NCBI RefSeq assembly: GCF_054482595.1
Contig: NZ_CM137008.1
Direction: 5' to 3' (one strand)
Length of the DNA: 64,000 bases
Shown here piece by piece: positions 10,012 to 47,193 of this stretch. Position 1 is the stretch's first letter. Every line of letters starts with the position of its first letter. Below the pieces are notes generated by a model that searched no databases, was not told the DNA's origin, and saw only the letters and a list, made by a program, of their open reading frames with translations. Both the position numbers and the translations under genes were made by a program.

Positions 10012-10038
10012 GCGCGGCCCCACCCCGCGCTTTTTTTT
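10012..10038 (+). terminator. rho-independent terminator downstream of adiA
   Basis: Stem gcgcgg / ccgcgc with loop ccccacc, followed by an 8-T run. Confidence 0.8.
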
Positions 10039-14866: not shown

Positions 14867-14875
14867 TTGAATCTG

Positions 14876-15967
14876 ATGCGTTTTCTGCGCCGACCAATAT
14901 CGCTGCGCCAACGGCTGATATTGACCATCGGGGCCATTTTGTTGGTGTTTGAGCTGATCAGCGTCTTCTGGCTATGGCATGAAAGTACCGAGCAGATTCA
15001 GCTGTTTGAGCAGGCGCTACGCGACAATCGCAACAACGATCGCCACATCATGCGTGAGATCCGCGAGGCGGTCGCCAGCCTGATTGTCCCCGGCGTCTTT
15101 ATGGTCAGCCTGACGCTATTTATCTGCTATCAGGCGGTACGCCGCATCACCCGCCCGCTGGCGGAGCTGCAAAAAGAGCTGGAAGCGCGCACCGCCGACA
15201 ACTTAACGCCCATTGCCATTCACAGCGCCACCCTCGAAATCGAAGCGGTGGTTTCGGCGTTAAACGATCTGGTCAGTCGCCTGACCAGCACGCTGGATAA
15301 CGAAAGGTTGTTTACCGCTGACGTCGCGCACGAACTGCGAACGCCACTGGCGGGGGTACGTTTGCATCTGGAACTGCTGGCGAAAACGCATCACATTGAT
15401 GTAGCACCGTTAGTGGCACGGCTTGATCAGATGATGGAGAGCGTCTCCCAGCTGCTGCAACTGGCGCGTGCCGGACAGTCATTTTCTTCCGGTAATTATC
15501 AACATGTAAAACTGCTGGAAGATGTCATTCTCCCCTCGTATGACGAACTCAGTACCATGCTCGACCAGCGACAGCAAACCCTGCTATTGCCAGAGAGCAC
15601 CGCCGACATCACCGTTCAGGGTGATGCAACCCTGCTGCGGATGTTATTGCGAAACCTGGTAGAAAACGCCCATCGTTACAGCCCGCAAGGCAGCAACATT
15701 ATGATTAAGCTGCAAGAAGATGGCGGAGCGGTCATGGCAGTTGAAGATGAAGGACCAGGTATTGATGAGAGTAAATGCGGGGAGTTGAGTAAAGCGTTTG
15801 TACGTATGGACAGCCGTTATGGCGGGATTGGTCTGGGGTTAAGTATTGTCAGCCGCATTACACAGTTGCATCACGGGCAGTTTTTCCTGCAAAACCGGCA
15901 AGAGACTTCTGGCACGCGCGCCTGGATACGGCTGAAGAAAGATCAGTACGTGGCAAACCAGATATAA
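14876..15967 (+). CDS. basS: sensor histidine kinase BasS (PmrB)
   Basis: ~363 aa from ATG at 14876; H-box (ADVAHELRTPL) and HATPase motifs; the track ORF begins at a TTG 3 codons upstream. Confidence 0.9.
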   Translation: MRFLRRPISLRQRLILTIGAILLVFELISVFWLWHESTEQIQLFEQALRDNRNNDRHIMREIREAVASLIVPGVFMVSLTLFICYQAVRRITRPLAELQKELEARTADNLTPIAIHSATLEIEAVVSALNDLVSRLTSTLDNERLFTADVAHELRTPLAGVRLHLELLAKTHHIDVAPLVARLDQMMESVSQLLQLARAGQSFSSGNYQHVKLLEDVILPSYDELSTMLDQRQQTLLLPESTADITVQGDATLLRMLLRNLVENAHRYSPQGSNIMIKLQEDGGAVMAVEDEGPGIDESKCGELSKAFVRMDSRYGGIGLGLSIVSRITQLHHGQFFLQNRQETSGTRAWIRLKKDQYVANQI

Positions 15968-16032
15968 AGAAAGCTGCTGACCACCAGCACGCTGAACACG
16001 GTAGTTAAACTTTCATAAACACGGTTTTTCAT
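15943..16032 (-). CDS. pmrR: small membrane peptide PmrR (29 aa)
   Basis: Reverse strand translates exactly to MKNRVYESLTTVFSVLVVSSFLYIWFATY*; overlaps the last 25 nt of basS on the opposite strand; not in the supplied ORF track. Confidence 0.8.
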   Translation of the reverse strand: MKNRVYESLTTVFSVLVVSSFLYIWFATY

Positions 16033-21753: not shown

Positions 21754-21771
21754 TTGTATTGTGATCGGTAA

Positions 21772-22247
<476 letters not shown>

Positions 22248-22310
22248 GCCTCTCATCTGTATAAATTTCGAACTACACTTAACTGGCTTCTCTTAACTGA
22301 GGTCACCATC

Positions 22311-22754: not shown

Positions 22755-22809
22755 TCCGCCGGGAGGCCCGCCCTCCCGCACTGTCATCGAATTCCCGTTA
22801 ACTCTTCAT

Positions 22810-22847
22810 CTGTTAGTCACTTTTCATTAACCAAACCGTCACAATAA
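22810..22847 (+). promoter_or_regulatory. candidate Pho box (PhoB binding) of the phnC promoter
   Basis: 7-bp elements separated by 4-bp spacers (ctgttag-tcac-ttttcat-taac-caaaccg-tcac-aataatc) 40-80 bp upstream of phnC; phn operon is an established Pho regulon member. Confidence 0.55.
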
Positions 22848-22886
22848 TCCGCCACGATGGAGCCACTTTTTTAGGGAGGCTGCATC

Positions 22887-23675: not shown

Positions 23676-23699
23676 CATCCCCATCATTGAGGAAAACGA

Positions 23700-24716
23700 A
23701 TGAACGCTAAGATAATTGCCTCGCTGGCCTTCACCAGCATGTTCAGCCTCAGCACCCTGTTTAGCCCGGCGCACGCCGAAGAGCAGGAAAAGGCGCTGAA
23801 TTTCGGCATTATTTCAACGGAATCACAGCAAAACCTGAAACCGCAATGGACGCCGTTTTTACAGGATATGGAGAAGAAGCTGGGCGTGAAGGTCAACGCC
23901 TTCTTTGCCCCGGACTACGCGGGCATTATCCAGGGAATGCGCTTCAACAAAGTGGATATCGCCTGGTACGGCAACCTGTCGGCAATGGAAGCGGTGGATC
24001 GCGCCAACGGCCAGGTCTTCGCCCAGACGGTCGCGGCGGATGGATCGCCGGGTTACTGGAGCGTGTTGATCGTCAACAAAGACAGTCCGATCAACAACCT
24101 GAGCGATCTGCTGGCGAAGCGGAAAGATCTCACCTTCGGCAATGGCGATCCTAACTCCACCTCTGGCTTCCTCGTCCCCGGTTACTACGTCTTTGCCAAA
24201 AACAATATCTCCGCTAACGACTTTAAGCGCACCGTCAACGCCGGGCATGAAACCAACGCGCTGGCCGTCGCCAACAAGCAGGTGGATGTGGCGACCAACA
24301 ACACCGAAAACCTCGACAAACTGAAAACCTCCGCGCCGGAGAAGCTCAAAGAGCTGAAGGTGATCTGGAAGTCGCCGCTAATCCCAGGCGATCCGATCGT
24401 CTGGCGCAAGAATCTGTCCGAAACCACCAAAGACAAGATCTACGACTTCTTTATGAATTACGGCAAGACGCCGGAAGAGAAAGCGGTGCTGGAACGCCTG
24501 GGCTGGGCGCCGTTCCGCGCCTCCAGCGACCTGCAACTGGTGCCGATTCGCCAGCTCGCGCTGTTTAAAGAGATGCAGGGCGTGAAAAGCAATAAAGGAC
24601 TGAATGAGCAGGACAAGCTGGCAAAAACCACCGAGATTCAGGCGCAGCTGGATGACCTGGACCGCCTGAACAACGCGTTAAGCGCGATGAGTTCGGTGAG
24701 TAAAGCGGTGCAGTAA
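23700..24716 (+). CDS. phnD: phosphonate ABC transporter periplasmic binding protein
   Basis: 338 aa with N-terminal signal peptide. Confidence 0.93.
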   Translation: MNAKIIASLAFTSMFSLSTLFSPAHAEEQEKALNFGIISTESQQNLKPQWTPFLQDMEKKLGVKVNAFFAPDYAGIIQGMRFNKVDIAWYGNLSAMEAVDRANGQVFAQTVAADGSPGYWSVLIVNKDSPINNLSDLLAKRKDLTFGNGDPNSTSGFLVPGYYVFAKNNISANDFKRTVNAGHETNALAVANKQVDVATNNTENLDKLKTSAPEKLKELKVIWKSPLIPGDPIVWRKNLSETTKDKIYDFFMNYGKTPEEKAVLERLGWAPFRASSDLQLVPIRQLALFKEMQGVKSNKGLNEQDKLAKTTEIQAQLDDLDRLNNALSAMSSVSKAVQ

Positions 24717-24720
24717 ATCG

Positions 24721-24808
24721 TAGGTCGGATAAGACGCCCCGGCGTCGCATCCGACAATGTGCAGGCGTTGATGCCGGATGCGGTGCAAGCACCTTATCCG
24801 GCCTACAG
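24721..24808. repeat. REP element pair between phnD and phnE
   Basis: ggtcggataagacgccccggcgtcgcatccgaca ... gatgccggatgcggtg...ccttatccggcctaca. Confidence 0.8.
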
Positions 24809-24821
24809 ACCGGAGCCAAAC

Positions 24822-25601
24822 ATGCAAACCATCACCATCGCCCCACCCAAGCGCAGCTGGTTCTCGCTTCTGAGCTGGGCCGTTGTACTCGCCGTGTTGG
24901 TCGTCTCGTGGCAGGGCGCGGAAATGGCCCCGCTTACGCTGATCAAAGACGGCGGCAACATGGCAACCTTCGCCGCCGACTTCTTCCCGCCCGATTTCAG
25001 CCAGTGGCAGGATTACCTCACCGAAATGGCCGTCACGCTGCAAATCGCCGTCTGGGGCACCGCGCTGGCGGTGGTTCTCTCCATCCCCTTTGGCCTGATG
25101 AGCGCCGAAAACCTGGTGCCGTGGTGGGTTTACCAGCCCGTTCGCCGCCTGATGGACGCCTGCCGCGCCATTAACGAAATGGTCTTCGCCATGCTGTTCG
25201 TGGTCGCCGTCGGCCTCGGCCCGTTCGCTGGCGTGCTGGCGCTGTTTATCCACACCACCGGCGTGCTCTCCAAGCTGCTTTCCGAAGCGGTGGAAGCGAT
25301 TGAACCCGGCCCGGTGGAAGGCATTCGCGCGACCGGCGCTAACAAGCTCGAAGAGATCCTCTACGGCGTGCTGCCGCAGGTGATGCCGCTGCTGATCTCC
25401 TACTCCCTCTATCGCTTCGAATCCAACGTCCGCTCGGCGACCGTCGTCGGCATGGTCGGCGCGGGCGGGATCGGCGTCACGCTGTGGGAAGCGATTCGCG
25501 GTTTCCAGTTCCAGCAAACCTGCGCCCTGATGGTGCTCATCATCGTCACGGTCAGCCTGCTGGATTTCCTCTCTCAACGGTTGCGTAAGCACTTTATCTG
25601 A
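24822..25601 (+). CDS. phnE: phosphonate ABC transporter permease (intact reading frame)
   Basis: 259 aa from ATG at 24822 ([19 protein letters not shown]...), uninterrupted to the stop; the track ORF starts upstream inside the REP element. Confidence 0.88.
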
Positions 25602-32941: not shown

Positions 32942-33700
32942 ATGAGCCTGACCCTCACGCTCACGGGCACCGGCGGCGCACAGGGCGTTCCGGCATGGGG
33001 CTGCGAGTGCGCGGCCTGCGCACGAGCGCGACGCTCGCCGCAGTATCGCCGCCAGCCGTGCAGCGGCGTAGTGAAGTTTAACGAGGCTGTCACCCTGATC
33101 GACGCCGGGCTGCACGATCTCACCGATCGCTGGTCGCCAGGATCGTTCCAGCAGTTTTTGCTGACGCATTATCATATGGATCACGTTCAGGGACTGTTTC
33201 CGCTGCGCTGGGGCGTGGGCGATTCGATCCCGGTCTACGGCCCGCCGGATGAACAGGGCTGCGACGATCTGTTTAAACATCCGGGCCTGCTTGATTTCAG
33301 CCACACGGTGGAACCGTTTGTGGTGTTCGATTTGCAGGGGTTGCAGGTGACACCGCTGCCGCTAAACCACTCAAAACTGACCTTCGGTTATCTGCTGGAA
33401 ACGGCACACAGCCGGGTGGCGTGGCTGTCTGACACCGCAGGCCTGCCGGAAAAAACGCTGAAATTTTTACACAATAATCAGCTACAGGTAATGGTGATTG
33501 ATTGCAGCCACCCGCCGCGCGAGGATGCACCGCGTAATCACTGTGATTTAAATACCGTGCTTGCGCTGAATCAGGTTATCCGCTCGCCACGGGTGATTCT
33601 GACCCATATCAGCCACCAGTTTGATGCGTGGCTGATGGAGAACGCGCTGCCGTCAGGGTTTGAGGCGGGGTTTGATGGGATGGAGATTGGGGTGGCGTGA
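32942..33700 (+). CDS. phnP: metallo-beta-lactamase-fold phosphodiesterase PhnP
   Basis: 252 aa; HxHxDH motif ([10 protein letters not shown]). Confidence 0.9.
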
Positions 33701-33732
33701 TGGGGGAGAATGTGCGCGCTGATGCCCTCATC

Positions 33733-33820
33733 CCGGCCCTCTCCCACAGGGAGAGGGAGAAAATCACCCCGTGCACCATCGGTCCCCTCGCCCCTTTGGG
33801 GAGAGGGTTAGGGTGAGGGG
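33733..33820. repeat. GC-rich palindromic intergenic element (family uncertain, possibly Box C-like)
   Basis: ccctctccc-aca-gggagaggg followed by cccctcgcccctttggggagagggttagggtgagggg between convergent phnP and yjdP. Confidence 0.5.
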
Positions 33821-33843
33821 CGATGCCAGCACCCGAGCCTACC

Positions 33844-34173
33844 TCACCGCCCATACTCATCTTCCATTCTCCGCTCTTCATCCTCCAGTTGCCGACGCTC
33901 CTGATCAAGCTGACGTTGGCGATCGTCCAGCTGCCTGCGGCGATCTTCAAACTGGCGGCGGCGGTCGTCATATTGTCTGCGCCGATCGTCGCTCACTTCA
34001 CGCTGCCAGCCGTCGTCGCGCGAATCTTCATAATCTCGCCCACGGTCAGGGTTATAAGCATCGTTAATCGCCTGCTGAATATTGCCAATGGTGTCGTCGA
34101 TAATATCGGCCTGGGCCGGTACGGTGGTCAGCGTGAGCAGGGTGAAAAAAAAGAGCGTGGAGTGGCGTTTCAT
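33844..34173 (-). CDS. yjdP: small secreted low-complexity protein YjdP
   Basis: 109 aa; N-terminal signal peptide; C-terminal DDRRRQ/ERRQ repeats; convergent with phnP as in K-12. Confidence 0.75.
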   Translation of the reverse strand: MKRHSTLFFFTLLTLTTVPAQADIIDDTIGNIQQAINDAYNPDRGRDYEDSRDDGWQREVSDDRRRQYDDRRRQFEDRRRQLDDRQRQLDQERRQLEDEERRMEDEYGR

Positions 34174-34241
34174 AAACTCGGCCTCGCAACAAAGTTAATA
34201 CAAGGTAGGCAAAGGTGCCTGTTACGAGTAGAGGAGGATTC

Positions 34242-36503
34242 TCAATTCTCTTGCCCCAGCGCCTGCGCCAACTGCGCACGGGTAAAGGGTTTGCGCAACA
34301 GCGCCACGTCTGGCAGCGCGGGGTTATGGCTGGGGCGTAAATCCTGACCGCTGATGAGTAGCAGCGTCAGGTGCGGGTAAAGTTTGCGGGCCGCATTGAC
34401 CACTTCTGCGCCGCTCATGCCGCCGGGGAGCATTAAATCGCTGATAAAAATATCGATTTCTGCTGATGCCGCCAGCAGATCCAGCGCCTGTTCGCCGCTG
34501 CTTGCTTCCAGCGTCAAATAGCCCAGCAGGTGCAACTGTTCGCAGATGGTCTGGCGCACCGCGGCTTCATCTTCCAGCACTAACACCAGTTTATCGCCGC
34601 TGACAGAAGCCTGTTCTACTGCCGCTGGCGATAGGTTTTTCGCCGCCGTCAGCGCGCGGGGAAGCTGTAATCTGACCGTTGTCCCCTGCCCCGGCGCGCT
34701 TTCAATTTCAACGCGCCCACCGGACTGGCGCACAAAACCATAGACCATCGACAAACCCAGCCCGCTGCCGCTGCCCGTCTGTTTGGTGGTAAAGAATGGC
34801 TCAAATACCTGGCTTTTCACCGCCTGCGACATACCGCTGCCATGATCGATGACCTCCAGTGCCACCATGTCCTGACGCTGCCCACTGCTGCGAGTAACGC
34901 GCTGATTCCAGGTACGAATTTTGATGATTCCCGTCTGCCCTTCCATCGCGTCACGGGCGTTCATCACCAGGTTGATGATGGCATTTTCCAGTTGGCTGAC
35001 GTCAATCCACGCGGGCCACGCCGGAGACTGCGCTTCAATCTCCAGCGCCAGCGTTGCCGGTAAGGAGTGGCGCATTAATTCGCTTAACTCTTCCAGCAAT
35101 GTTTTCAGTTCAACGGCTTGCGGATGTAAGGACTGCTTGCGGGAAAACGCCAGCAGTCGTTGTGTCAGTAGCGCCCCACGTTCGGCAGCTTGCAGCGCCC
35201 GCTGTATTCGCGGCGCGTCTGGCGAGTCCGGATTCACCAGCTCCAGGCTGCCAATAATCACCGCCAGCAGATTATTAAAATCATGGGCCAGCCCGCCCGT
35301 CAGTTGCCCGACCGCTTTCAGTTTCTGGCTGTGTAATAGCGCCTCTTCCAACCCCTGCCGCTCAGTTTGGGCAATCTCCATCTGCGTGGTCTTCTCTTTT
35401 AGCAGCCGTGAGGTTCGTTCGAGTGACTCGGTATTGCGGGCAAAAACGTTAAAGGCGCGCGCCAGTTCACCCAACTCATCACGCCGCTGTAACGCCGGAA
35501 AAGTGACGTCCGCTTCGCCGTACGCCAGGCGGCTCATGGCGCGGGAAATCGCCGTCAGGTTAGTGCCGAGGTTGCGATAGATATACCAGCCGGCAAACGC
35601 GGTGATCACCACCGCTAACAGGGCGAAAATCATGATCACCCTCTCGCCGGAGCGCAAATCCTGGTAACTTTGCGCCACGCGCTGACCGGAGAGCGTCGCC
35701 ACCTGTTCGGCGTAACGGTTGATGTCGCCATTGAGGATCGCCACCAGCGCTTTGATGTGAAACATATACCAGCTGATTGCCAGATCGCTTTGCTCCAGAG
35801 CGGCAGAAAGCGGCGCGAGTTTACGCATTTCATCATTGAAATCATTGAGTAACGTATTAACCAATGGCATATCGCTGTGGGTCGGCAACGCAGACATTAC
35901 CCCGACCAGTTGATGAATAATCGCCTGCGGCGCGGGGGTGGCAATAGCGGCAACAATCAGTCGGTTCATCTCGTTAAGCAAAATATCATCTTGCGCGTGA
36001 GTGACTTTTTGCAGATGCCGCAGATAACTTAAGTTTTGATACAGCGAACTTAACAGCGCGTTGCGCTCCAGATGCCGCCTTTGCCCGCGCTCCAGCATAC
36101 CGCCGACGCTGGTTTGCAGTTCGTTGCTACGCGTGATGATTCGCGTCACCAGCCCGGCTTCCTGCTGCGCTAAAGGCGCGTTCGCCAGTTGTGCAAGCGA
36201 GCTTTTTAATGCCCGCTGTGTCTCCTGCAACCGCTCGGCTTCGCCTTTATATTCCAGCGCTCCCACCACCTGCGACAATCGCACCGCCGCCGTTGCCACG
36301 TTTGCCGTGTCGCGCGCCAGATTCAGGCTGCCGGTCATATCATCCACCGTTTGCTGCTGCACCAGCTCCTGCATCTGGCTGGCATGACGAAAGCCCATTA
36401 CCGCCACGCCGCTGACCATCAACGTCACCGCCACCACCAGCAAATTCAAAAGCAGCAATCGCCCGCGCGCGCTGGCAAAAAAATGACGTCCGGGGTGCGC
36501 CAT
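34242..36503 (-). CDS. hybrid sensor histidine kinase (periplasmic sensor, HAMP, HisKA, HATPase, C-terminal receiver; no HPt domain)
   Basis: ~753 aa from ATG at 36503 (MAHPGRHFF...) with GGAG 8 nt upstream; two TM segments flank a ~300 aa periplasmic region; H-box GGLAHDFNNLL; G-boxes DHGSGM / GSGLGLSMV; receiver with ISDLMLPGG; protein ends ~25 aa after the receiver. Confidence 0.85.
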   Translation of the reverse strand: MAHPGRHFFASARGRLLLLNLLVVAVTLMVSGVAVMGFRHASQMQELVQQQTVDDMTGSLNLARDTANVATAAVRLSQVVGALEYKGEAERLQETQRALKSSLAQLANAPLAQQEAGLVTRIITRSNELQTSVGGMLERGQRRHLERNALLSSLYQNLSYLRHLQKVTHAQDDILLNEMNRLIVAAIATPAPQAIIHQLVGVMSALPTHSDMPLVNTLLNDFNDEMRKLAPLSAALEQSDLAISWYMFHIKALVAILNGDINRYAEQVATLSGQRVAQSYQDLRSGERVIMIFALLAVVITAFAGWYIYRNLGTNLTAISRAMSRLAYGEADVTFPALQRRDELGELARAFNVFARNTESLERTSRLLKEKTTQMEIAQTERQGLEEALLHSQKLKAVGQLTGGLAHDFNNLLAVIIGSLELVNPDSPDAPRIQRALQAAERGALLTQRLLAFSRKQSLHPQAVELKTLLEELSELMRHSLPATLALEIEAQSPAWPAWIDVSQLENAIINLVMNARDAMEGQTGIIKIRTWNQRVTRSSGQRQDMVALEVIDHGSGMSQAVKSQVFEPFFTTKQTGSGSGLGLSMVYGFVRQSGGRVEIESAPGQGTTVRLQLPRALTAAKNLSPAAVEQASVSGDKLVLVLEDEAAVRQTICEQLHLLGYLTLEASSGEQALDLLAASAEIDIFISDLMLPGGMSGAEVVNAARKLYPHLTLLLISGQDLRPSHNPALPDVALLRKPFTRAQLAQALGQEN

Positions 36504-36616
36504 ATCACGCTCCGTGAAGAAAAATCGCAATATGACAAATATGAACGGCTTCTGACATTTTGCATTTACTTTCCTGTGATGGAGTGCTGATATCGACAAC
36601 CTCGCAGGAGTCCACC
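36504..36616. promoter_or_regulatory. divergent promoter region between the sensor kinase gene and the ABC transporter operon
   Basis: 113-bp AT-rich spacer between divergent start codons; direct repeats tgacaaatatgaa (36533-36545) and tgacattttgcat (36553-36565) spaced 20 bp apart. Confidence 0.5.
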
Positions 36617-38137
36617 ATGAACAGCACGCCAGTTCTGGAGATGCGCAATATTGCCAAAGCCTTCGGCAAATTTTATGCACTCAAAGGGGTGGATTTGACG
36701 GTCTACCCTGGCGAGATCCATGCCCTGATGGGGGAAAACGGCGCGGGAAAAAGCACGCTGATGAAGGTGCTGGCGGGGGCGTATACCGCCACCAGCGGCG
36801 AGATCCTCATAGACGGCAAGCCCTTTCACATTCGCACGCCAAAAGATGCCTTAAGCGCCGGTATTACGCTGATTTATCAGGAGATGCAGCTGGCACCGAA
36901 TCTGTCGGTGGCAGAAAATATTTTTCTCGGCAGCGAGCTTTCCCACGGCGGGCTGGTGCAGCGTAAAGAGATGCTAGTGCAGGCGCAAAAAGTGATCGAC
37001 CGCCTCGGCGCGCAGTTTAACGCCAGCGATAAGGTCATGACGCTGACCATTGCCGAGCAACAGCAGGTCGAAATCGCCCGCGCACTACATCGCAACAGCC
37101 GCATTCTGGTGATGGACGAACCCACCGCTGCCCTCTCCTCCCGTGAAACTCACCGTCTGTTTGAACTGATTATGCGGCTGCGCGATGAAGGGATGGCGAT
37201 TATCTACATCAGCCACCGTATGGCGGAAGTGTATGAGCTTTCCGATCGCGTCAGCGTGCTGCGCGACGGGCAATACGTTGGCAGCCTGACCCGCGATAAC
37301 CTCAATGCCGGGGAGCTGGTGCGGATGATGGTCGGCAGGCCACTGAGCGATCTGTTCAATAAAGAGCGCGATATCCCGCTCGGTAAAGCCCGCCTGAATG
37401 TTCACCACCTGACCGACGGCGGCAAAGTCCAGCCGAGTAGCCTGCTGGTGCGTTCCGGCGAAATTGTTGGCCTCGCCGGACTGGTGGGTGCCGGACGTTC
37501 CGAACTGGCGCAGTTGATCTTCGGCGTGCGGAAAGCGACAGGCGGAATGATTGAAGTCGATGGTGAACCGGTGGTGATCCACTCCCCGCGCGAAGCCATC
37601 GATCTTGGCATTGGTTTTCTCACCGAAAACCGCAAAGAACAAGGCTTATTCCTTGAAATGGCAGCAGCCGAAAACATCACCATGGCAACCCTGGAGCGCG
37701 ATGCCCGCTGGGGAATGCTCAATCGCAAAAAAGCGCAAACCATTTCCGATGACGCCATTAAGTTGCTCAACATTCGCGTGCCTCACGCCCAGGTACGCGC
37801 GGGCGGGCTTTCCGGCGGCAATCAGCAAAAACTGTTGATCTCCCGCTGGGTGGCGATTGGCCCGCGCATTTTACTGCTCGATGAACCCACCCGCGGCGTG
37901 GACGTTGGCGCCAAAAGCGAGATCTACCGGATCATGAACGAGATGGCGCGCAAGGGCGTGGCGATCCTGATGATCTCCAGCGAACTGCCGGAGATAGTGG
38001 GAATGAGCGATCGCGTCTATGTGATGCGCGAAGGCAGCATTGCCGGTGAGTTAAACGGCAAAAACATCACCCAGGAAAACATTATGACCTTAGCGACTGG
38101 CGTCAACGACGCCCATTCCCAGGCGGTAACCTCATGA
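36617..38137 (+). CDS. sugar ABC transporter ATP-binding protein, tandem ABC domains (RbsA/CUT2-type)
   Basis: 506 aa from ATG at 36617 ([16 protein letters not shown]...) preceded by aggag; two Walker A motifs ([18 protein letters not shown]) and two signature motifs (LSGGNQQK in the second half). Confidence 0.88.
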
Positions 38138-39108
38138 CGACCTCTGCAAAAACCTCTGCCAAAAAAATGCTGATGAGCGATCTGATGCAAACGGTCGGCA
38201 TCTTGCCCATTTTGATTCTGATCGTGGCGGTATTTGGCTTTATCGCGCCAAACTTTTTTACCGAAAGCAACCTGCTGAATATTACCCGCCAGGCATCGAT
38301 CAACATTGTTCTGGCGGCGGGGATGACCTTCATCATTTTGACCGGCGGGATCGATCTTTCCGTGGGTTCGATCCTCGGCACCACAGCGGTGGCGGCGATG
38401 GTCGTCTCCCTTAGCCCTGAGTTCGCCATGCTGTCGATCCCGGCAGCGCTGATGCTCGGCCTGCTGCTGGGGCTGTTCAACGGCGCGCTGGTGGCCTTTG
38501 CCGGATTGCCACCGTTTATCGTCACGCTTGGCACCTATACGGCGCTGCGCGGGGCGGCGTATCTGCTGGCGGACGGCACCACGGTTATCAACTCCAACAT
38601 TAATTTCGAGTGGATAGGCAATAACTATCTCGGGCCGGTCCCGTGGCTGGTGGTGATTGCCCTCGCAGTGATTGTGCTGTGCTGGTTTATTCTGCGCCGC
38701 ACCACGCTTGGCGTTCATATCTACGCCGTCGGCGGCAATATGCAGGCGGCGCGTCTTACCGGCATTAAGGTCTGGCTGGTGCTGCTGTTTGTTTATGGTA
38801 TGAGCGGCCTGCTTTCTGGGCTTGGCGGGATTATGAGCGCCTCACGGCTGTACAGCGCCAACGGCAACTTAGGCATGGGTTACGAACTGGATGCCATTGC
38901 AGCGGTGATCCTCGGCGGCACCAGTTTTGTCGGCGGCATCGGCACCATCACCGGCACGCTGGTCGGCGCGCTAATTATCGCCACGCTCAACAATGGCATG
39001 ACCTTAATGGGCGTCTCTTACTTCTGGCAACTGGTGATCAAAGGGGCGGTGATCATCATTGCGGTGCTGATCGACAAATACCGTACCCGACACCATCAAA
39101 GTGCATAA
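38134..39108 (+). CDS. sugar ABC transporter permease (RbsC-like)
   Basis: 324 aa polytopic membrane protein; 4-bp ATGA overlap with the ATPase gene. Confidence 0.85.
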
Positions 39109-39126
39109 ACACATGAGGAATACAGC

Positions 39127-40068
39127 ATGAGATTGAAGCCCTTAGTGACCGCGCTCTATGCAGGCGCGCTGCTGACCGCAGCACCGTTCGCCCAGGCGAA
39201 AGAACTGAAATCGATAGGCGTAACGGTGGGCGATCTGGCGAACCCGTTCTTCGTGCAGATCACCAAAGGCGCGGAGCTGGAAGCACGCAAACTGGCAGGC
39301 GATAACGTCAAAGTGACGCTGGTTTCCAGCGGCTACGATCTGGGTCAGCAGGTGTCGCAGATAGACAACTTTATCGCCGCTAACGTCGATATGATTATCC
39401 TCAACGCTGCCGATTCAAAAGGGATCGGCCCAGCGGTGAAACGGGCGAAAGATGCCGGGATCGTAGTCGTCGCGGTTGACGTAGCGGCAGAAGGTGCTGA
39501 TGCCACCATCACCTCCGATAACACCCAGGCGGGCGAAATGGCCTGTAAATACATCACCGATCGCCTGAAAGGCAAAGGCAATGTGGTGATCATCAACGGC
39601 CCGCCGGTATCCGCCGTGCAAAACCGCGTCGAAGGATGCCAGACTGAATTTAAACGCCATCCTGACATCAAAGTGCTCTCTGACAACCAGAACGCGAAAG
39701 GCAGTCGTGAAGGCGGGCTGGAGGTAATGACGGGACTGCTGGCGGCAAATCCGAAGATCGACGGCGTATTTGCGATTAACGATCCCACCGCAATCGGTGC
39801 CGATCTGGCAGCAAAACAGGCGCAACGTAACGAGTTCTTTATTGTTGGTGTGGACGGAAGCCCGGACGCCGAAGAGGCGCTCAAGCGTGAGAACTCGTTG
39901 TTTGTCGCTACTCCGGCGCAAGATCCCCAGGTGATGGCAGCGAAAGCGGTGGAAATTGGCTACGACATTTTGCAGGGCAAACCTGCGCCGAAAGAGCCGG
40001 TGCTGATCCCGGTGACGATGATCGATAAAAACAACGTCGGCAATTACAAAGGCTGGACGGTGAAATAA
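39127..40068 (+). CDS. periplasmic sugar-binding protein (type I PBP, RbsB-like)
   Basis: 313 aa; signal peptide MRLKPLVTALYAGALLTAAPFAQA; RBS gagga upstream. Confidence 0.85.
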   Translation: MRLKPLVTALYAGALLTAAPFAQAKELKSIGVTVGDLANPFFVQITKGAELEARKLAGDNVKVTLVSSGYDLGQQVSQIDNFIAANVDMIILNAADSKGIGPAVKRAKDAGIVVVAVDVAAEGADATITSDNTQAGEMACKYITDRLKGKGNVVIINGPPVSAVQNRVEGCQTEFKRHPDIKVLSDNQNAKGSREGGLEVMTGLLAANPKIDGVFAINDPTAIGADLAAKQAQRNEFFIVGVDGSPDAEEALKRENSLFVATPAQDPQVMAAKAVEIGYDILQGKPAPKEPVLIPVTMIDKNNVGNYKGWTVK

Positions 40069-40122
40069 GTCCACACGCCGGGCGGCGCAGCTGCCCGGTC
40101 ACCGCTAAGGAGAACGCTTTCG

Positions 40123-40806
40123 ATGAAACGCTCCGCTATAAACGACATTCTCGGCCATACACGGCAATTCTTTTCGCAACATGACGTACATCTGCCGCCC
40201 TTTGCCAGTTTCTCGCCTGCTCAATGGCAGCAGCTCGACACCGCCGCGTGGGAGGAGGTTTTTGATCTTAAACTCGGCTGGGATGTTACCGCTTTTGGTC
40301 GCAACAACTTTGCAGCACACGGGCTGACGCTGTTTACCCTACGTAACGGCTCAGCAAAAGGAATGCCGTATGTGAAATGTTACGCCGAGAAGATCATGCA
40401 TGTGCGCGATGCGCAGGTCACGCCAATGCATTTTCACTGGCGTAAGCGTGAGGACATTATCAATCGCGGCGGCGGTAATTTAATTGTTGAACTGTGGAAT
40501 GCCGATAGTAACGAGCAAACGGCTGATAGTGACATTACGGTGGTGATCGACGGCTGCCGCCAGAAACATACTGCAGGCACTCAGTTGCGCCTGTCTCCCG
40601 GCGAAAGTATCTGCCTGCCGCCCGGCCTGTATCACAGCTTTTGGGCGGAAACCGGCTTTGGCGATGTTCTGGTTGGCGAAGTCTCTTCTGTCAATGACGA
40701 CGACCACGATAACCACTTTTTACAGCCACTGGACCGCTACAACCTGATTGACGAAGACGAACCTGCACAGTTGGTATTGTGTAACGAATACCGCCAGTTC
40801 CGCTGA
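40123..40806 (+). CDS. cupin-fold sugar isomerase, D-lyxose/D-mannose isomerase-like
   Basis: 227 aa; RBS aaggag; His-rich metal-site region (VTPMHFHWRKRE); length and context match my recollection of the characterised pathogenic E. coli D-lyxose isomerase family (not verified by search). Confidence 0.7.
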   Translation: MKRSAINDILGHTRQFFSQHDVHLPPFASFSPAQWQQLDTAAWEEVFDLKLGWDVTAFGRNNFAAHGLTLFTLRNGSAKGMPYVKCYAEKIMHVRDAQVTPMHFHWRKREDIINRGGGNLIVELWNADSNEQTADSDITVVIDGCRQKHTAGTQLRLSPGESICLPPGLYHSFWAETGFGDVLVGEVSSVNDDDHDNHFLQPLDRYNLIDEDEPAQLVLCNEYRQFR

Positions 40807-40820
40807 ATAAGGATAACGTT

Positions 40821-41681
40821 ATGCCATTGATTTCTCTCGCTGAAGGGCTGGCACATGCCCGCGAACATCACTATTCGTTAGGTGCGTTTAATGTGCTGGA
40901 CTCGCACTTTTTACGCGCCTTGTTTGCTGCTGCCAGACAAGAACGTTCGCCCTTTATTATCAACATTGCCGAAGTACATTTTAAATATATCTCGCTGGAT
41001 TCCCTGGTCGAGACAGTGAAATTTGAAGCGGCGCGTCATGCCATTCCGGTGGTGTTAAATCTCGATCACGGACTGCATTTTGAATCGGTGGTGCAAGCGT
41101 TGCGGCTGGGATTCAGCTCGGTAATGTTTGATGGCTCCACGCTGGGGTATGAAGAAAATGTCCGCCAGACGCGGGAAGTGGTGAAAATGTGCCATGCCGT
41201 TGGCGTATCGGTAGAAGCTGAACTGGGCGCGGTGGGTGGCGACGAAGGCGGTGCACTCTATGGCCATGCCGATGAATCCCTGTTTACCGATCCGCAACTG
41301 GCGCGTGATTTTGTCGACCGTACCGGCATTGACGCGTTGGCCGTGGCGATTGGCAATGCACACGGCAAATATCGCGGCGAACCGAAACTCGATTTCCCGC
41401 GCCTCGACGCTATCCGCCAGCAGGCTGCTATCCCGCTGGTATTACACGGCGGCTCAGGGATTAGCGATGCCGATTTCCGCCGCGCCATCGAACTGGGTAT
41501 CCACAAAATCAATTTCTACACTGGCATGTCGCAAGCGGCGCTGGCTGCCGTTGAGGCCCGAATGGCGTACCGTCAGCCGATGTATGACGAGTTTGCCGAG
41601 TTACTGCTGGCAGTGGAAGCCGCCATCAGCGATACGGTTGCACAACAGATGCGTATTTTTGGCAGTGCGGGGCAGGCATGA
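40821..41681 (+). CDS. class II ketose-bisphosphate aldolase family protein (GatY/KbaY/FbaA-like)
   Basis: 286 aa; alignable by eye with GatY (NLDHG, SVMFDGS, SVEAELG, ALAVAIGNAHG, LVLHGGSG motifs). Confidence 0.8.
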   Translation: MPLISLAEGLAHAREHHYSLGAFNVLDSHFLRALFAAARQERSPFIINIAEVHFKYISLDSLVETVKFEAARHAIPVVLNLDHGLHFESVVQALRLGFSSVMFDGSTLGYEENVRQTREVVKMCHAVGVSVEAELGAVGGDEGGALYGHADESLFTDPQLARDFVDRTGIDALAVAIGNAHGKYRGEPKLDFPRLDAIRQQAAIPLVLHGGSGISDADFRRAIELGIHKINFYTGMSQAALAAVEARMAYRQPMYDEFAELLLAVEAAISDTVAQQMRIFGSAGQA

Positions 41682-42679
41682 TGGAGCGTAAAGGAATTAT
41701 CGCCGCAGGCAATATGTTGGTTGACCACGTCCATCAGATTATCCAGTGGCCAGAGCGCGGCTGGCTGGCGGAGATCACCCACAGCGAACGCTCCACCGGC
41801 GGTGCGCCGCTTAACGTCCTGCTGACGCTGGCGAAAATGCGCACCGGGCTGCCGTTACAGGCGGTTGGGCTAATCGGTCAGGACAGCGACGGCGATTACA
41901 TCATGGCGATGCTTGAGCAATATCACGTCAATCGTCAGCATGTGCAGCGCACTACCTTTGCCCCGACGTCGATGTCGCAGGTGATGACAGACCCAAGCGG
42001 GCAGCGGACGTTTTTCCATTCGCCGGGTGCAAACAGACTTTTGGATCTTCCGGCGTTCGATCAGCTCGATAACACCATGAAGATTTTCCATCTCGGCTAT
42101 TTACTGTTGCTCGACAGCCTGGATATGCCGGACGATGTTTACGGCACCCGTAGCGCACGCCTGCTGGCGCAAATGCGTGATACTGGCTTTGAAACCTCAC
42201 TCGACCTGGTCTCCCGTAAGGGCGATCCGCGTTATCAGCCGCTGGTGCTGTCCGCGTTGCGCCATCTGGATTATCTGGTAATTAACGAACTGGAGGCCGG
42301 GGAGTTTAGCGGGCTGGAAATTCGGTTACCCAACGGCGAACCGCATATCGCGCATATTGCTGCCGCCGCGCGTGAACTGTTAGATGCGGGCGTGCGCCAG
42401 CGGGTGGTGATCCACTGCCCGGAAGGGGCGTGGGGAGAGACCCCAGAACAGGGCGGCGTGTGGATCCCTTCGCAAAAGTTAGAACAACGGGAAATTATCG
42501 GCAGCGTCGGCGCGGGCGATGCATTTTGTGCCGGATTTTTATATGGCTGCCATGAACGCTGGACGCTTACCGAGAGCATCAAACTGGCACACGCCTGCGC
42601 GCGGGCAAGCCTGTTATGCGCCAATGCCATCGACGGGGCGAAAACGCTGGAAGAGCTGCAAACAGAAATGTCGGATTAA
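41678..42679 (+). CDS. pfkB/ribokinase-family sugar kinase
   Basis: 333 aa; C-terminal GAGDAF motif (GSVGAGDAFCAGFLYG); 4-bp overlap with the aldolase gene. Confidence 0.8.
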   Translation: MMERKGIIAAGNMLVDHVHQIIQWPERGWLAEITHSERSTGGAPLNVLLTLAKMRTGLPLQAVGLIGQDSDGDYIMAMLEQYHVNRQHVQRTTFAPTSMSQVMTDPSGQRTFFHSPGANRLLDLPAFDQLDNTMKIFHLGYLLLLDSLDMPDDVYGTRSARLLAQMRDTGFETSLDLVSRKGDPRYQPLVLSALRHLDYLVINELEAGEFSGLEIRLPNGEPHIAHIAAAARELLDAGVRQRVVIHCPEGAWGETPEQGGVWIPSQKLEQREIIGSVGAGDAFCAGFLYGCHERWTLTESIKLAHACARASLLCANAIDGAKTLEELQTEMSD

Positions 42680-43383
42680 TGCACGTCGGCAGCGAAGACA
42701 TACCCCAGACCGCGCAGAGTTTTAATCAACATCGGCTGATGCGGGTTGAGTTCGATTTTGCGTCGTAAGCGCATGATTAATACGTCGATGGTGCGATCAA
42801 ACACCTCCACGCTGTCGCTGTGGGTGAACGCCAGCAACTGCTCGCGGCTCAATACCCGACGCGCGTTTTGCGCCAGAGCCAGTAACAAGCCATATTCGCC
42901 CTGAGTTAACTCGACATGTTGCTGAAGCGGATTGTGCAACTGGCAGCGCATGGTATCGAGATACCAGCCATTGAATGACAGCCCGGCGCTTTTCTCGTCA
43001 TTAACCGCCAGCGCACCAACCCGTCGCAACACCGCTTTCAGTCGTGCGACCACCACCCGCGGGGTGAACGGTTTGCAGATGTAATCATCCGCGCCCATTT
43101 CCAGCCCGACCACCACATCAGACTCACTGCCCATGCCGGTCAACATCACCACCGGCAATGTCGGACGCAGTTTCTGGATTTGCTGCAATACCCTCAGGCC
43201 GTTGGTATCGGGTAGCATCATATCCAGCACCACCAGCGCAATGTCAGGATCGCCCTCAATACGCAATATGGCCTCCTGTCCGGTATGGCAGACTGAAACC
43301 GTAAAGACATGTTCACTTAACACGTCCTGCAACAGTGCGCAGATAGCCGTGTCATCATCCACCACCAGCACGACGGGTTTCAT
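42676..43383 (-). CDS. OmpR/PhoB-family response regulator
   Basis: 235 aa from ATG at 43383 (MKPVVLVVDDD...) with GGAG upstream; the track ORF starts 6 codons earlier at 43401; receiver plus winged-helix (LRGLGYVF); 3' end overlaps the kinase gene stop convergently. Confidence 0.85.
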   Translation of the reverse strand: MKPVVLVVDDDTAICALLQDVLSEHVFTVSVCHTGQEAILRIEGDPDIALVVLDMMLPDTNGLRVLQQIQKLRPTLPVVMLTGMGSESDVVVGLEMGADDYICKPFTPRVVVARLKAVLRRVGALAVNDEKSAGLSFNGWYLDTMRCQLHNPLQQHVELTQGEYGLLLALAQNARRVLSREQLLAFTHSDSVEVFDRTIDVLIMRLRRKIELNPHQPMLIKTLRGLGYVFAADVH

Positions 43384-43673
43384 GGTTACACTCCGCATCA
43401 TTCATCTGATTAATCATTGTGCGTACTTCTTGTCGAAGTGAAAGCTGAAAGTAATATAAATAATAAAAATATAAGTCAGGTCACATTATTGATGATAGTA
43501 ATAAATATGCCGTACTTTTCCCTCTTCAGCACAAATGCCTAATAAAATGGATCGTTCCGCTCACACTTCCACTTATTAAAGTCGCAATTTCCCAATTATG
43601 ATAACGCCAGCTTTAAATGACGTATTTTGCATGGATTACATATTTACGACATAAATGATAAATGGAGATTTAT

Positions 43674-45659
43674 ATGAATAACTCTCGGTTATTCCGTTTG
43701 AGCAGGATTGTTATTGCGTTAACCGCCGTCAGCGGCATGATGGTAAATACCGCTAACGCGAAAGAGGAAGCGAAAGCCGCCACTCAATATACCCAACAGG
43801 TTAATCAGAATTACGCCAAATCATTACCGTTTAGCGATCGTCAGGATTTTGACGATGCCCAGCGTGGATTTATCGCCCCGCTGCTGGATGAAGGTATTCT
43901 GCGTGATGCGAACGGTAAAGTTTACTACCGCGCAGACGATTACAAATTTGATATTAATGCCGCTGCGCCGGAAACCGTAAACCCCAGCCTGTGGCGTCAG
44001 TCGCAGATCAACGGCATATCTGGCCTGTTCAAAGTCACCGATAAAATGTATCAGGTGCGCGGCCAGGATATCTCTAACATTACGTTCGTTGAGGGCGAGA
44101 AAGGCATTATTGTCATCGACCCGCTGGTGACGCCGCCTGCCGCAAAAGCCGCACTTGACCTTTACTTCCAGCATCGTCCGCAAAAACCGATTGTTGCCGT
44201 TATTTACACTCACAGCCACACTGACCACTATGGTGGCGTGAAAGGTATTATCTCTGAAGCCGATGTTAAATCCGGCAAAGTTCAGGTGATTGCCCCTGCT
44301 GGCTTTATGGACGAAGCCATCAGCGAAAACGTGCTGGCGGGTAACATCATGAGCCGCCGTGCGCTCTACTCTTACGGTCTGTTACTGCCGCACAACGCGC
44401 AAGGCAACGTGGGTAATGGCCTTGGCGTGACGCTGGCAACCGGCGACCCGAGCATTATTGCGCCAACCAAAACTATCGTCAGAACTGGCGAGAAGATGAT
44501 TATCGACGGCCTGGAGTTTGACTTCCTGATGACCCCAGGCAGCGAAGCCCCAGCCGAAATGCACTTCTATATTCCGGCCCTGAAAGCCCTGTGTACCGCC
44601 GAGAACGCCACGCATACCCTGCACAACTTCTACACTCTGCGCGGCGCGAAAACCCGCGATACCAGCAAGTGGACAGAGTACCTGAACGAAACGCTGGATA
44701 TGTGGGGTAACGACGCGGAAGTACTGTTTATGCCGCACACCTGGCCGGTCTGGGGCAATAAGCATATCAATGATTATATTGGTAAATATCGCGATACCAT
44801 CAAGTATATTCACGATCAAACCCTGCATCTGGCGAACCAGGGCTACACCATGAATGAAATCGGCGACATGATTAAGCTGCCGCCTGCGCTTGCCAATAAC
44901 TGGGCCAGCCGCGGTTATTACGGTTCTGTCAGCCACAACGCCCGCGCGGTGTATAACTTCTATCTTGGCTATTACGACGGTAACCCGGCTAACCTGCATC
45001 CGTATGGTCAGGTAGAGATGGGCAAACGTTACGTGAAAGCGCTGGGCGGTTCTGCCCGTGTCATCAACCTGGCGCAAGAAGCGAACAAGCAAGGTGATTA
45101 CCGCTGGTCGGCAGAACTGCTGAAACAGGTGATTGCCGCCAACCCGGGTGACCAGGTCGCGAAGAATCTGCAAGCGAATAACTTTGAACAGCTGGGCTAT
45201 CAGGCCGAGTCCGCCACATGGCGCGGTTTCTACCTGACCGGCGCGAAAGAGCTGCGCGAAGGGGTGCATAAGTTCAGCCACGGCACCACCGGTTCCCCGG
45301 ACACCATTCGCGGAATGTCGGTCGAAATGCTGTTCGACTTTATGTCCGTTCGCCTCGATAGCGAAAAAGCCGCGGGTAAAAATATCAGCCTGAACTTCAA
45401 TATGAGCAACGGCGATAACCTCAACCTGACGCTGAACGATAGCGTGCTTAACTACCGTAAAACGCTGCAATCCCAAGCTGACGCCTCTTTCTACATCAGT
45501 CGTGAAGATCTGCACGCCGTGCTGACCGGACAAGCCAAAATGGCGGATCTGGTAAAAGCGAAGAAAGCCAAAATTATTGGCAATGGTGCGAAACTGGAAG
45601 AAATTATTGCCTGTCTGGATAATTTCGATTTGTGGGTAAATATCGTAACCCCAAATTAA
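43674..45659 (+). CDS. yjcS: metallo-beta-lactamase-fold alkyl/aryl sulfatase
   Basis: 661 aa from ATG at 43674 ([21 protein letters not shown]...); signal peptide; HxHxDH motif ([10 protein letters not shown]). Confidence 0.85.
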
Positions 45660-45669
45660 TGCCACTCAC

Positions 45670-45695
45670 TTTTGGGGGCGCTTAAGCCCCCAAAA
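45670..45695 (+). terminator. hairpin terminator downstream of yjcS
   Basis: ttttgggggc / gcccccaaaa inverted repeat with 6-nt loop; A/T runs on both sides. Confidence 0.6.
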
Positions 45696-45867
45696 GCATT
45701 TACTTTAAAAATATATGCAGCCAATTAATAAATAAAACATATAAGTTATGAATGCGGTGGCTGAATAAAGCTATTTTTATTCATCAAGAAAATAGCCATA
45801 CTGACGCCTTCAATGGATAGTGATATTCACTACAGATATTGTTCGCAGCAGACAGGATGTATTTAAT

Positions 45868-46143
45868 ATGCCAACAGTTCTCTCTCGCATGGCGATGCAA
45901 CTCAAAAAAACAGCCTGGATAATTCCCGTCTTCATGGTTTCGGGATGTTCATTATCTCCGGCAATCCCGGTGATCGGCGCTTATTATCCCAGCTGGTTTT
46001 TCTGCGCCATTGCCAGCCTTATATTGACGCTCATCACGAGGCGAGTTATTCAGCGGGCAAATATCAAGCTGGCATTTGTCGGAATTATTTATACCGCCCT
46101 TTTTGCTCTCTACGCCATGCTGTTCTGGCTGGCATTTTTCTAA
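45868..46143 (+). CDS. ytcA: small lipoprotein YtcA
   Basis: 91 aa from ATG at 45868; lipobox MVSGC; upstream of mdtN. Confidence 0.75.
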   Translation: MPTVLSRMAMQLKKTAWIIPVFMVSGCSLSPAIPVIGAYYPSWFFCAIASLILTLITRRVIQRANIKLAFVGIIYTALFALYAMLFWLAFF

Positions 46144-46161
46144 TCTATTTGAGACGCGCTC

Positions 46162-47193
46162 ATGGAAAGTATGCCGAAAAAAGCTCCTCGCAGTAAATTC
46201 CCTGCTCTGTTAGTGGTTGCGTTGGCGCTGGTTGCCCTTGTTTTCGTTATCTGGCGCGTAGACAGTGCGCCATCAACTAATGACGCTTACGCGTCAGCAG
46301 ATACCATTGATGTGGTGCCGGAAGTCAGCGGTCGCATTGTAGAACTGGCGGTCACCGACAACCAAGCGGTGAAGCAGGGCGATTTGCTGTTCCGCATTGA
46401 CCCGCGCCCGTACGAAGCCAATCTGGCGAAAGCCGAAGCCTCCCTCGCGGCACTGGATAAGCAAATTATGCTCACCCAGCGTAGCGTTGACGCGCAACAG
46501 TTTGGTGCCGACTCGGTTAACGCCACGGTAGAAAAAGCCCGTGCCGCCGCTAAACAGGCCACAGATACATTACGCCGCACCGAGCCATTACTGAAAGAAG
46601 GTTTTGTCTCAGCGGAAGACGTTGACCGTGCGAGGACCGCGCAGCGCGCTGCAGAAGCGGATCTTAATGCCGTATTGTTACAGGCGCAGTCAGCCGCCAG
46701 CGCCGTCAGCGGCGTCGATGCGCTGGTGGCGCAACGTGCGGCGGTCGAAGCGGATATTGCCCTGACCAAACTGCATCTGGAAATGGCGACCGTTCGCGCA
46801 CCGTTTGATGGCCGGGTCATTTCCCTCAAAACCTCCGTCGGGCAATTTGCTTCTGCCATGCGCCCTATTTTTACCCTAATCGACACTCGTCACTGGTACG
46901 TGATCGCCAACTTCCGCGAAACCGATCTGAAAAATATTCGCTCAGGTACACCCGCAACGATTCGCCTGATGAGTGACAGCGGCAAAACTTTCGAGGGTAA
47001 AGTGGATTCGATTGGCTACGGCGTGCTACCGGATGACGGCGGCCTGGTGCTGGGCGGCCTGCCAAAAGTGTCTCGCTCTATTAACTGGGTCCGCGTTGCC
47101 CAGCGTTTTCCGGTCAAAATCATGGTCGATAAACCTGACCCGGAAATGTTCCGCATCGGCGCTTCGGCAGTCGCTAATCTTGAGCCGCAATAA
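46162..47193 (+). CDS. mdtN: membrane fusion (HlyD-family) efflux component
   Basis: 343 aa; N-terminal TM anchor; operon position. Confidence 0.88.
   Translation: MESMPKKAPRSKFPALLVVALALVALVFVIWRVDSAPSTNDAYASADTIDVVPEVSGRIVELAVTDNQAVKQGDLLFRIDPRPYEANLAKAEASLAALDKQIMLTQRSVDAQQFGADSVNATVEKARAAAKQATDTLRRTEPLLKEGFVSAEDVDRARTAQRAAEADLNAVLLQAQSAASAVSGVDALVAQRAAVEADIALTKLHLEMATVRAPFDGRVISLKTSVGQFASAMRPIFTLIDTRHWYVIANFRETDLKNIRSGTPATIRLMSDSGKTFEGKVDSIGYGVLPDDGGLVLGGLPKVSRSINWVRVAQRFPVKIMVDKPDPEMFRIGASAVANLEPQ

Follow-up and report, generated by a model that had tools for sequence, protein, structure and literature searches.

The convergent response-regulator gene lmvR and its four-base-pair overlap with lmuK at the end of an acquired sugar-utilisation island

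The locus examined here raises the question of what it means that a response-regulator gene lies at the far end of a catabolic gene block, separated from its presumed partner kinase by the whole operon and sharing bases of its stop codon with the last gene of that operon on the opposite strand. The window, by which we mean the whole stretch of DNA that was analysed, is 64,000 nucleotides long (RefSeq assembly GCF_054482595.1, contig NZ_CM137008.1), and its features are collected in Table 1. A preliminary description made from the sequence had proposed that the convergent overlap implied shared or colliding termination and possible antisense interference. The single best explanation, which we consider very probable, is that the regulator is the known LmvR and that the overlap is incidental and without function.

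Table 1. Features of the lmv/lmu island and its convergent junction, in window coordinates
Feature	Position	Strand	Basis
lmvK (= rbfS, Z5692), hybrid histidine kinase	34242..36503	-	Pfam, RefSeq
LmvR binding site, direct repeat ATATGA-N3-ATATGA	36530..36544	+	exact match, upstream of lmuX promoter
Predicted lmuX promoter (-35 CTGACA 36552-36557, 17-nt spacer, -10 TGTGAT 36575-36580)	36552..36580	+	conservation
lmuX, ABC ATPase	36617..38137	+	Pfam/NCBIfam, RefSeq
lmuY, permease	38134..39108	+	Pfam/NCBIfam, RefSeq
lmuZ, binding protein	39127..40068	+	Pfam/NCBIfam, RefSeq
lmuI, D-lyxose/D-mannose isomerase	40123..40806	+	Pfam/NCBIfam, RefSeq
lmuA, class II ketose-bisphosphate aldolase	40821..41681	+	Pfam/NCBIfam, RefSeq
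lmuK, sugar kinase of the pfkB family, final operon gene	41678..42679	+	Pfam PfkB
TTAA common to both convergent stops, 4-bp lmuK/lmvR overlap	42676..42679	.	sequence and script check
lmvR (= rbfR, Z5684, EDL933_5428)	42676..43383	-	Pfam Response_reg and Trans_reg_C, RefSeq CDS WP_000805929.1
lmvR-yjcS divergent intergenic region, with predicted lmvR promoter	43384..43673	.	RefSeq annotation
Shine-Dalgarno GGAG	43391..43394	-	sequence; 7 nt 5' of ATG 43383
Upstream in-frame ATG (241-aa alternative)	43399..43401	-	judged unused

The minus-strand gene at 42676..43383 encodes a 235-aa response regulator of the OmpR/PhoB family. Pfam identified the domain pair that marks this family, an N-terminal receiver domain (PF00072, E = 1.2e-25), with the phospho-acceptor Asp54 located within LVVLDMMLP, and a C-terminal winged-helix Trans_reg_C domain (PF00486, E = 1.8e-22). 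These two domains, in agreement with the RefSeq annotation, uphold the initial call of the gene as a response regulator. The coordinates are exactly those of RefSeq lmvR in XH990 and EDL933, WP_000805929.1 is the same protein in XH990, RM19259 and EDL933, and the gene is 99.9% identical to that of EDL933 at the nucleotide level. Since the protein is identical to that of EDL933, the gene occupies the same site between yjdP and yjcS and the published footprint repeat is present, the regulator is LmvR/RbfR of the acquired OI-167 island, which has already been characterised. The island runs in the order lmvK, lmuX-Y-Z-I-A-K and lmvR between yjdP and yjcS, where it takes the place of the allose locus (PMC10128022), and island DNA ends at about 43452-43511, with homology to island-free genomes resuming at 43453 or 43512. 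Compared with OI-167 of O157:H7 EDL933, the regulator protein, gene order, yjdP-yjcS position, lmuX repeat and 4-bp junction are the same, whereas the window comes from a non-O157 strain and shares 12 kb at 100% identity with isolates from urine and chickens; positions 34000-46000 are 100% identical to several complete E. coli genomes, XH990 among them. Expression of lmvR is reported to depend on RpoS (15-fold; PMC2907692), and LmvR in EHEC additionally binds the ler promoter (PMC9860305). ECs5067, probably the same gene, goes up in stationary phase.

The start of lmvR had been left ambiguous at first, with a preference for 43383 over 43401. The regulator reading frame spans 42676..43401 on the minus strand with an internal ATG at 43383, and the longer 241-aa form is 100% identical to a protein of O55:H7 CB9615. 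Orthologous loci were compared using one genome per species, giving 23 loci. The N-terminus MKPxxLxxDDD was kept in 21 of the 23, and an SD-like GGAG, GGGG or GGA preceded this conserved MKP start in most of them, mostly by 7-9 nt, while the MMRSVT extension of E. coli was missing or interrupted by a stop in most orthologues. Because the MKP start and its SD-like motif are conserved and the extension is not, we infer that translation begins at ATG 43383. The start at 43401 was rejected, as its extension is not conserved and its only source is an older GenBank annotation of O55:H7 CB9615. The published D54 numbering also agrees with the 235-aa protein, and together with the 23-locus comparison it confirms the original preference, so that a start codon fixed by comparative evidence is what the present analysis adds to the description of lmvR.

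Upstream of this start, lmvR and yjcS (43674.., plus strand) diverge across a gap of 290 bp. A -10-like hexamer about 35 nt upstream of the lmvR ATG is conserved among orthologues, and lmvR would be transcribed from its own promoter inside this region. Because the two genes are divergent, the suggestion that lmvR might receive read-through from promoters on the yjcS side had to be dropped as impossible, yjcS being transcribed away from lmvR. Autoregulation by LmvR has been reported (PMC10128022). A search for the LmvR repeat upstream of lmvR did not locate the autoregulatory site of that report; the best match, at 43452-43466, had 3 mismatches and was no better than shuffles, in E. coli and in every orthologue.

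The target of the regulator at the other end of the island is well described. Yang et al. 2023 (PMC10128022) gave the names LmvR and LmvK and, for the genes in between, lmuKAIZYX; they describe the two regulatory genes as "separated by six genes" and report these six to be co-transcribed. LmuK has reported fructose kinase activity (PMC10128022), and expression of lmvR and the lmu genes, but not of lmvK, is inducible by lyxose and mannose (PMC10128022). Overexpression of LmvR raises lmuX 694-fold, and a DNase I footprint supported by EMSA placed LmvR over the ATATGA-N3-ATATGA repeat of the lmuX promoter, at -41 to -62 (PMC10128022). In the window this repeat has a sole exact match, and it was kept in 20 of 20 orthologous intergenic regions, reaching Pasteurellaceae. 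Alignment of the kinase-operon intergenic region across species picked out TATGACAAATATGAAC followed by CTGACA-17 nt-TGTGAT; this block, picked out by the alignment on its own, equals the published LmvR footprint. The predicted promoter implies a transcription start near 36587, which would put the published footprint at 36525-36546, covering the repeat. Phosphorylated LmvR binds the repeat adjoining the lmuX -35 element, and bound LmvR switches on the lmuXYZIAK transport and catabolic operon. The 21-bp ler motif of the riboflavin paper has no obvious resemblance to the lmuX repeat.

The division of kinase and regulator noted at the outset is real, as six plus-strand genes lie between lmvK and lmvR, a layout rarer than the adjacent pair. 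It is also shared widely. Orthologous loci were found in Citrobacter, Pluralibacter, Pseudescherichia, Phytobacter, Cedecea, Enterobacter, Leclercia, Pantoea, Serratia, Acerihabitans and Tolumonas, and in the Pasteurellaceae Bisgaardia and Rodentibacter. At every locus where the contig allows, the operon and the regulator gene run towards each other, and the operon and the kinase gene run apart. An invariant core of kinase, ABC ATPase, permease, binding protein and regulator is accompanied by catabolic genes that vary and are missing from Phytobacter, Bisgaardia and Rodentibacter; at three loci (L009, L020 and L023) the regulator directly faces the binding-protein gene. Conservation was 95-97% for the binding protein and permease versus 74-83% for the regulators. 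Because layout, repeat and promoter are shared across the orthologous loci, the kinase/operon/regulator arrangement is, to judge from this comparison, ancestral, with an age reaching from Pasteurellaceae to Enterobacteriaceae and a form that mirrors torS-torT-torR.

The likeness to Tor extends to several levels. In K-12, torS (minus), torT (plus) and torR (minus) have the same layout, with the kinase divergent from the binding-protein gene and the regulator convergent, so that the Tor-type gene order is present here; torT (1056261..1057289, plus) and torR (1057262..1057954, minus) overlap by 28 bp, compared with 4 bp for lmuK and lmvR. Along its whole length LmvR shares 36% identity with TorR, and AADV forms the C-terminus of both proteins. 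Read on the opposite strand, the LmvR half-site ATATGAAC becomes CTGTTCATAT, the tor box. LmvK has two TM segments, a helical periplasmic domain, HAMP, HisKA, HATPase and receiver domains according to Pfam and modelling. The modelled periplasmic domain (pLDDT 80.2) gave its best fold matches to the TorS sensor domain and the TorS-TorT complex (Foldseek top matches 3I9Y, E = 1e-3, TM 0.65 by target, and 3O1I/3O1H); the helical bimodular domains of PilJ and McpS score similarly to TorS for this model, and a sequence search of the sensor domain against the PDB returned no match, so that the predicted link to TorS comes from the fold search. There are also clear differences. Pfam found no HPt domain in LmvK, and the receiver ends the protein, unlike TorS, in which a C-terminal HPt follows the receiver; the kinase core is only 26% identical to that of TorS. 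LmuZ can hardly be aligned with TorT (E = 0.024), and the target of LmvR is a sugar operon between the regulatory genes, whereas the Tor target is a respiratory operon outside them. Scores against the Tor equivalog models stayed below the cut-offs (TorR 163 vs 275 bits, TorS 137 vs 676, TorT 42 vs 200). Because these thresholds are not reached and LmvK carries no HPt, the relation of Lmv to Tor is one of resemblance and not of membership.

A second likeness is to VirA/VirG of Agrobacterium, which like LmvK/LmvR couples an OmpR-family regulator to a hybrid kinase that ends in a receiver and lacks an HPt. In NCBIfam, the VirA-like model (219 bits) ranked among the best for the kinase core and VirG (180 bits) among the best for the regulator; both scores fall far short of the equivalog cut-offs (647 and 344 bits), and gene arrangement and regulon differ between VirA/ChvE/VirG and lmv/lmu. 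VirA, a hybrid kinase without HPt, phosphorylates its own regulator directly, and it senses sugars via the periplasmic sugar-binding protein of an ABC transporter. By analogy, this precedent could apply to LmuZ and LmvK. The universal linkage of kinase and regulator to binding protein and transporter suggests that LmuZ may deliver the sugar signal to LmvK, and the TorS-like fold, the VirA-like and VirG matches and the higher conservation of binding protein and permease point the same way. The split layout might then be functional, as a three-component sensor of the Tor or Vir type in which LmuZ presents lyxose or mannose to the periplasmic domain of LmvK, a reading that we put forward tentatively and hold to be rather unlikely. 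If true, it would explain why kinase, transporter genes and regulator are always found linked, with the regulator placed directly against the operon's 3' end as torR is against torT, and the published view, in which LmvK is itself the sensor of mannose or riboflavin, would have to be revised. Against a strict dependence on LmuZ, lmuKAIZYX is dispensable for mouse colonisation and lmvK and lmvR are not, and riboflavin stimulates the purified kinase (PMC9860305).

We turn to the junction itself. The lmuK stop is TAA at 42677-42679 and the lmvR stop is the complement of 42676-42678, and reading TTAA at 42676-42679 bears out the 4-bp tail-to-tail overlap of the regulator and pfkB-family genes that had been described. 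Misannotation as the source of a false overlap was rejected, as both ends are set by unambiguous stop codons. The junction sequence is the same in EDL933. Across orthologues the spacing between the stops of the regulator and its neighbour varied widely: it was -64 nt twice, -26, -22 twice, -13, -4 in E. coli, Leclercia and Cedecea neteri, +3 twice, +5, +11, +27 and then +54 to +99, with 11 nt or less between the stops at 13 of 20 junctions. It varies within E. coli as well, where a CAA-to-TAA change in strain PT62 shortens lmuK and leaves a 14-nt gap between the stops. E. coli LmvR is without a 7-residue tail found in other genera, and its junction is about 21-27 nt shorter.

No terminator-like site was found at the lmuK/lmvR junction in a terminator and promoter scan of 41500-44000, which returned 4 sites against 2.8 expected, that is, the level of chance. 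Two plus-strand matches at 42504-42534 were discarded as junction terminators because they fall within lmuK, some 145 nt short of its stop, and a minus-strand hairpin at about 42625-42581 (-20.6 kcal/mol) was discarded as it has no U-tract and lies within coding sequence. RNA structure predicted across the junction was no better than shuffles on either strand (z-scores +0.86 and +0.50), and Rfam gave no match in 33500-46500 at E <= 1. Strong hairpins were carried by long-spacer orthologues (Bisgaardia, z = -7.7; Pluralibacter, -6.3; Phytobacter, -4.2). A terminator can thus exist in the spacer of some orthologues, and E. coli genuinely differs in lacking one. The conservation among orthologues that would mark a cis-antisense arrangement was found neither for the overlap nor for the terminator-less junction, the spacing being variable and some spacers containing hairpins. 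Overlaps of this kind are common, with 75 annotated convergent overlapping gene pairs in K-12 (PMC4161906). Two of the five convergent junctions in the window overlap, the other being pmrB/pmrR with 25 bp at 15943-15967. The 4-bp overlap is no more than chance would give; it is commonplace, and the regulator, kinase, operon and binding site are already published. Because the spacing varies across genera and within E. coli, the overlap appears to be the current state of a drifting junction, and TTAA would be a by-product of stop-codon drift with no dedicated function. Neither PMC10128022 nor PMC9860305 discusses the overlap or the convergent junction.

Because there is no terminator between lmuK and lmvR, each transcript would end inside the opposing gene, and transcripts from both sides most likely terminate there. 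Stretches rich in C and poor in G lie 200-450 nt past each stop and are compatible with Rho ending untranslated read-through; Rho-dependent termination, once translation stops, would probably be what ends it. The proposal that the overlap brings about colliding termination or antisense control found no support, given that the spacing is not conserved, the junction has no terminator or structure and lmvR is co-induced with the operon. A more specific version is that the terminator-less junction is regulatory, with read-through of the induced lmu operon running antisense to lmvR and lowering its expression as negative feedback. Such feedback would draw on the lack of any terminator-like site or stable hairpin between or just past the stops, and on an operon inducible several hundred-fold (694-fold for lmuX), so that read-through could be substantial; short or negative spacing also recurs in many orthologues and in torT/torR, and a terminator missing in many lineages could mean that read-through is useful and not merely harmless. 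However, the length of the overlap is not conserved, some lineages have a strong intergenic hairpin, the stops are separated in E. coli PT62, and the rut-like C-rich stretches past each stop fit Rho ending the untranslated read-through. Moreover, by qPCR lmvR goes up together with the lmu genes on mannose and lyxose, the opposite of a reciprocal pattern (PMC10128022), lmvR is expressed from its own region, RpoS-dependent and autoregulated, and no antisense effects are reported in PMC10128022 or PMC9860305. Nothing in the evidence gathered favours antisense feedback on lmvR, and we regard it as improbable; if true, damping of lmvR by lmu read-through would give a system that controls EHEC type III secretion a simple feedback of its own.

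The reading of lmvR as a known regulator with an incidental overlap includes its pairing with the kinase at the far end of the island, which the preliminary description had presumed and which published genetics and in vitro phosphotransfer (PMC10128022, PMC9860305) have established; kinase and regulator also occur together at 19 of 23 orthologous loci. Liu et al. 2022 (PMC9860305), who introduced the names RbfR and RbfS, reported that RbfS transfers phosphate to RbfR in vitro and that riboflavin enhances RbfS autophosphorylation. Mutants lacking either lmvK or lmvR no longer induce lmu or grow on lyxose, H410 and D54 are both needed for lmu induction, and an unknown Hpt protein was postulated for the LmvK-LmvR relay (PMC10128022). 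The signal differs between the papers, being riboflavin in PMC9860305 and mannose/lyxose in PMC10128022. That LmvR is effectively an orphan, or is paired in vivo with another kinase or phosphorelay and LmvK is not its direct partner, is highly improbable: LmvK is indeed a hybrid kinase with a receiver and no HPt for which an Hpt protein has been postulated (PMC10128022), and lmvR is expressed separately and in an RpoS-dependent manner whereas sugars do not induce lmvK, but phosphotransfer is direct in vitro (PMC9860305), both deletions have the same phenotype and both phosphorylation sites are required (PMC10128022), the two genes co-occur, and the VirA-like and VirG families give good scores with the kinase core and regulator.

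The system has been described as confined to, or highly associated with, the EHEC lineages O157:H7, O145 and O55:H7 (PMC10128022, PMC9860305). Of 5426 complete E. coli genomes, 410 carry the island; the majority of carriers belong to these lineages, and the island is more widespread than those two papers state. The other carriers, with serotype taken from record names and with XH990, APEC37 and F6326-C1 as examples, included isolates from urine, chickens, pigs, a pigeon, a goat and wastewater.

The proteins of the island carrying lmvK (hybrid histidine kinase), the lmu operon and lmvR (OmpR-family response regulator) differed in conservation across genera. Across the orthologous loci L003-L025, protein identity was 95-97% for the permease and for LmuZ, the binding protein, 81-92% for the enzymes and only 74-83% for the regulator and kinase. 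LmuZ also differs very little from PDB entry 4RWE, whose only designation is 'sugar-binding transport protein'.

The predicted periplasmic domain of LmvK, modeled within residues 1-376, was all-helical (pLDDT 80). In fold searches of the PDB it best matched the sensor domain of TorS and the complex of TorS with TorT; the helical bimodular domains of PilJ and McpS came next. LmvK may sense its signal by way of the binding protein LmuZ. The K-12 torS-torT-torR locus and the lmv island share a kinase, binding protein and regulator layout, and in K-12 torT (+) and torR (-) also converge, with an overlap of 28 bp, while torS is divergent from torT. In family-model searches the LmvK core gave a hit to a VirA-like model and LmvR gave one to VirG; LmvK contains a receiver and lacks an HPt domain. 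In several orthologous kinases (L021, L020, L010, L012, L022 and L025), HAMP and HisKA are set apart by an insert of about 97 residues. E. coli LmvK has no such insert, and Pfam identified it as PAS_7 in both kinases scanned (L021 and L020).

The 4-bp convergent overlap of lmvR with lmuK, the last gene of the operon, was compared with other junctions. The pmrB and pmrR genes overlap convergently by 25 bp, so that of the window's five convergent junctions two overlap. The E. coli strain PT62 represents a divergent lineage (95% identity) in which a CAA-to-TAA change removes 6 codons from lmuK, and as a result a 14-nt gap replaces the overlap. Where orthologues have a long spacer between the regulator gene and its neighbour, a strong hairpin or REP-like palindrome lies inside it (z down to -7.7), and several genera have similar GGGAGAGGG/CCCTCTCCC palindromes as insertions in the intergenic region between the kinase gene and the operon.

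Coordinates of the features discussed
Feature	Sequence	Coordinates	Strand
pmrB	window	14867..15967	+
pmrR	window	15943..16032	-
pmrB/pmrR gene pair	window	14867-16032	
lmvK-lmu-lmvR island	window	34242-43383	
LmvK residues 1-376	window	35376-36503	-
Permease and LmuZ	window	38134-40068	
Shortened lmuK region	PT62 (L084)	8503-10208	
torT/torR	K-12, NC_000913.3	1056261-1057954	+/-
Spacer with hairpin or REP-like palindrome	L020	10703-10756	
Spacer with hairpin or REP-like palindrome	L006	10733-10820	
Spacer with hairpin or REP-like palindrome	L009	8512-8610	
Spacer with hairpin or REP-like palindrome	L024		
Spacer with hairpin or REP-like palindrome	L023		
Kinase with PAS_7 insert (Pfam)	L021	16993-19539	
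Kinase with PAS_7 insert (Pfam)	L020	14574-17036	

A TGTGAC-N6-GTTAAnnATTCAT-type motif recurred 5' of the regulator gene among the lmvR orthologues and, at L009, L010, L014, L015 and L025, was also present at the operon promoter, immediately 5' of the LmvR repeat. The motif is degenerate in E. coli. These candidate sites may represent additional half-sites for LmvR or a site of CRP type.

According to both PMC10128022 and PMC9860305, the island is limited to EHEC and O55:H7 or strongly linked with these groups. It was carried by 410 of the 5426 complete E. coli genomes, and carriers outside O157, O145 and O55 included the urine isolate XH990, the chicken isolates APEC37 and GF66.1, the O169:H41 strain F6326-C1 and wastewater isolates. 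Also outside these serogroups were a pigeon isolate (95% identity) and a goat isolate (92%). Alignment of the window to XH990 revealed a 1-nt offset near the window start (about position 1) and indels at about 21000-25000, net about 200 nt, an area that includes crfC, which is annotated as frameshifted in XH990. The rest of the window was nearly identical, with 1-3 mismatches elsewhere.
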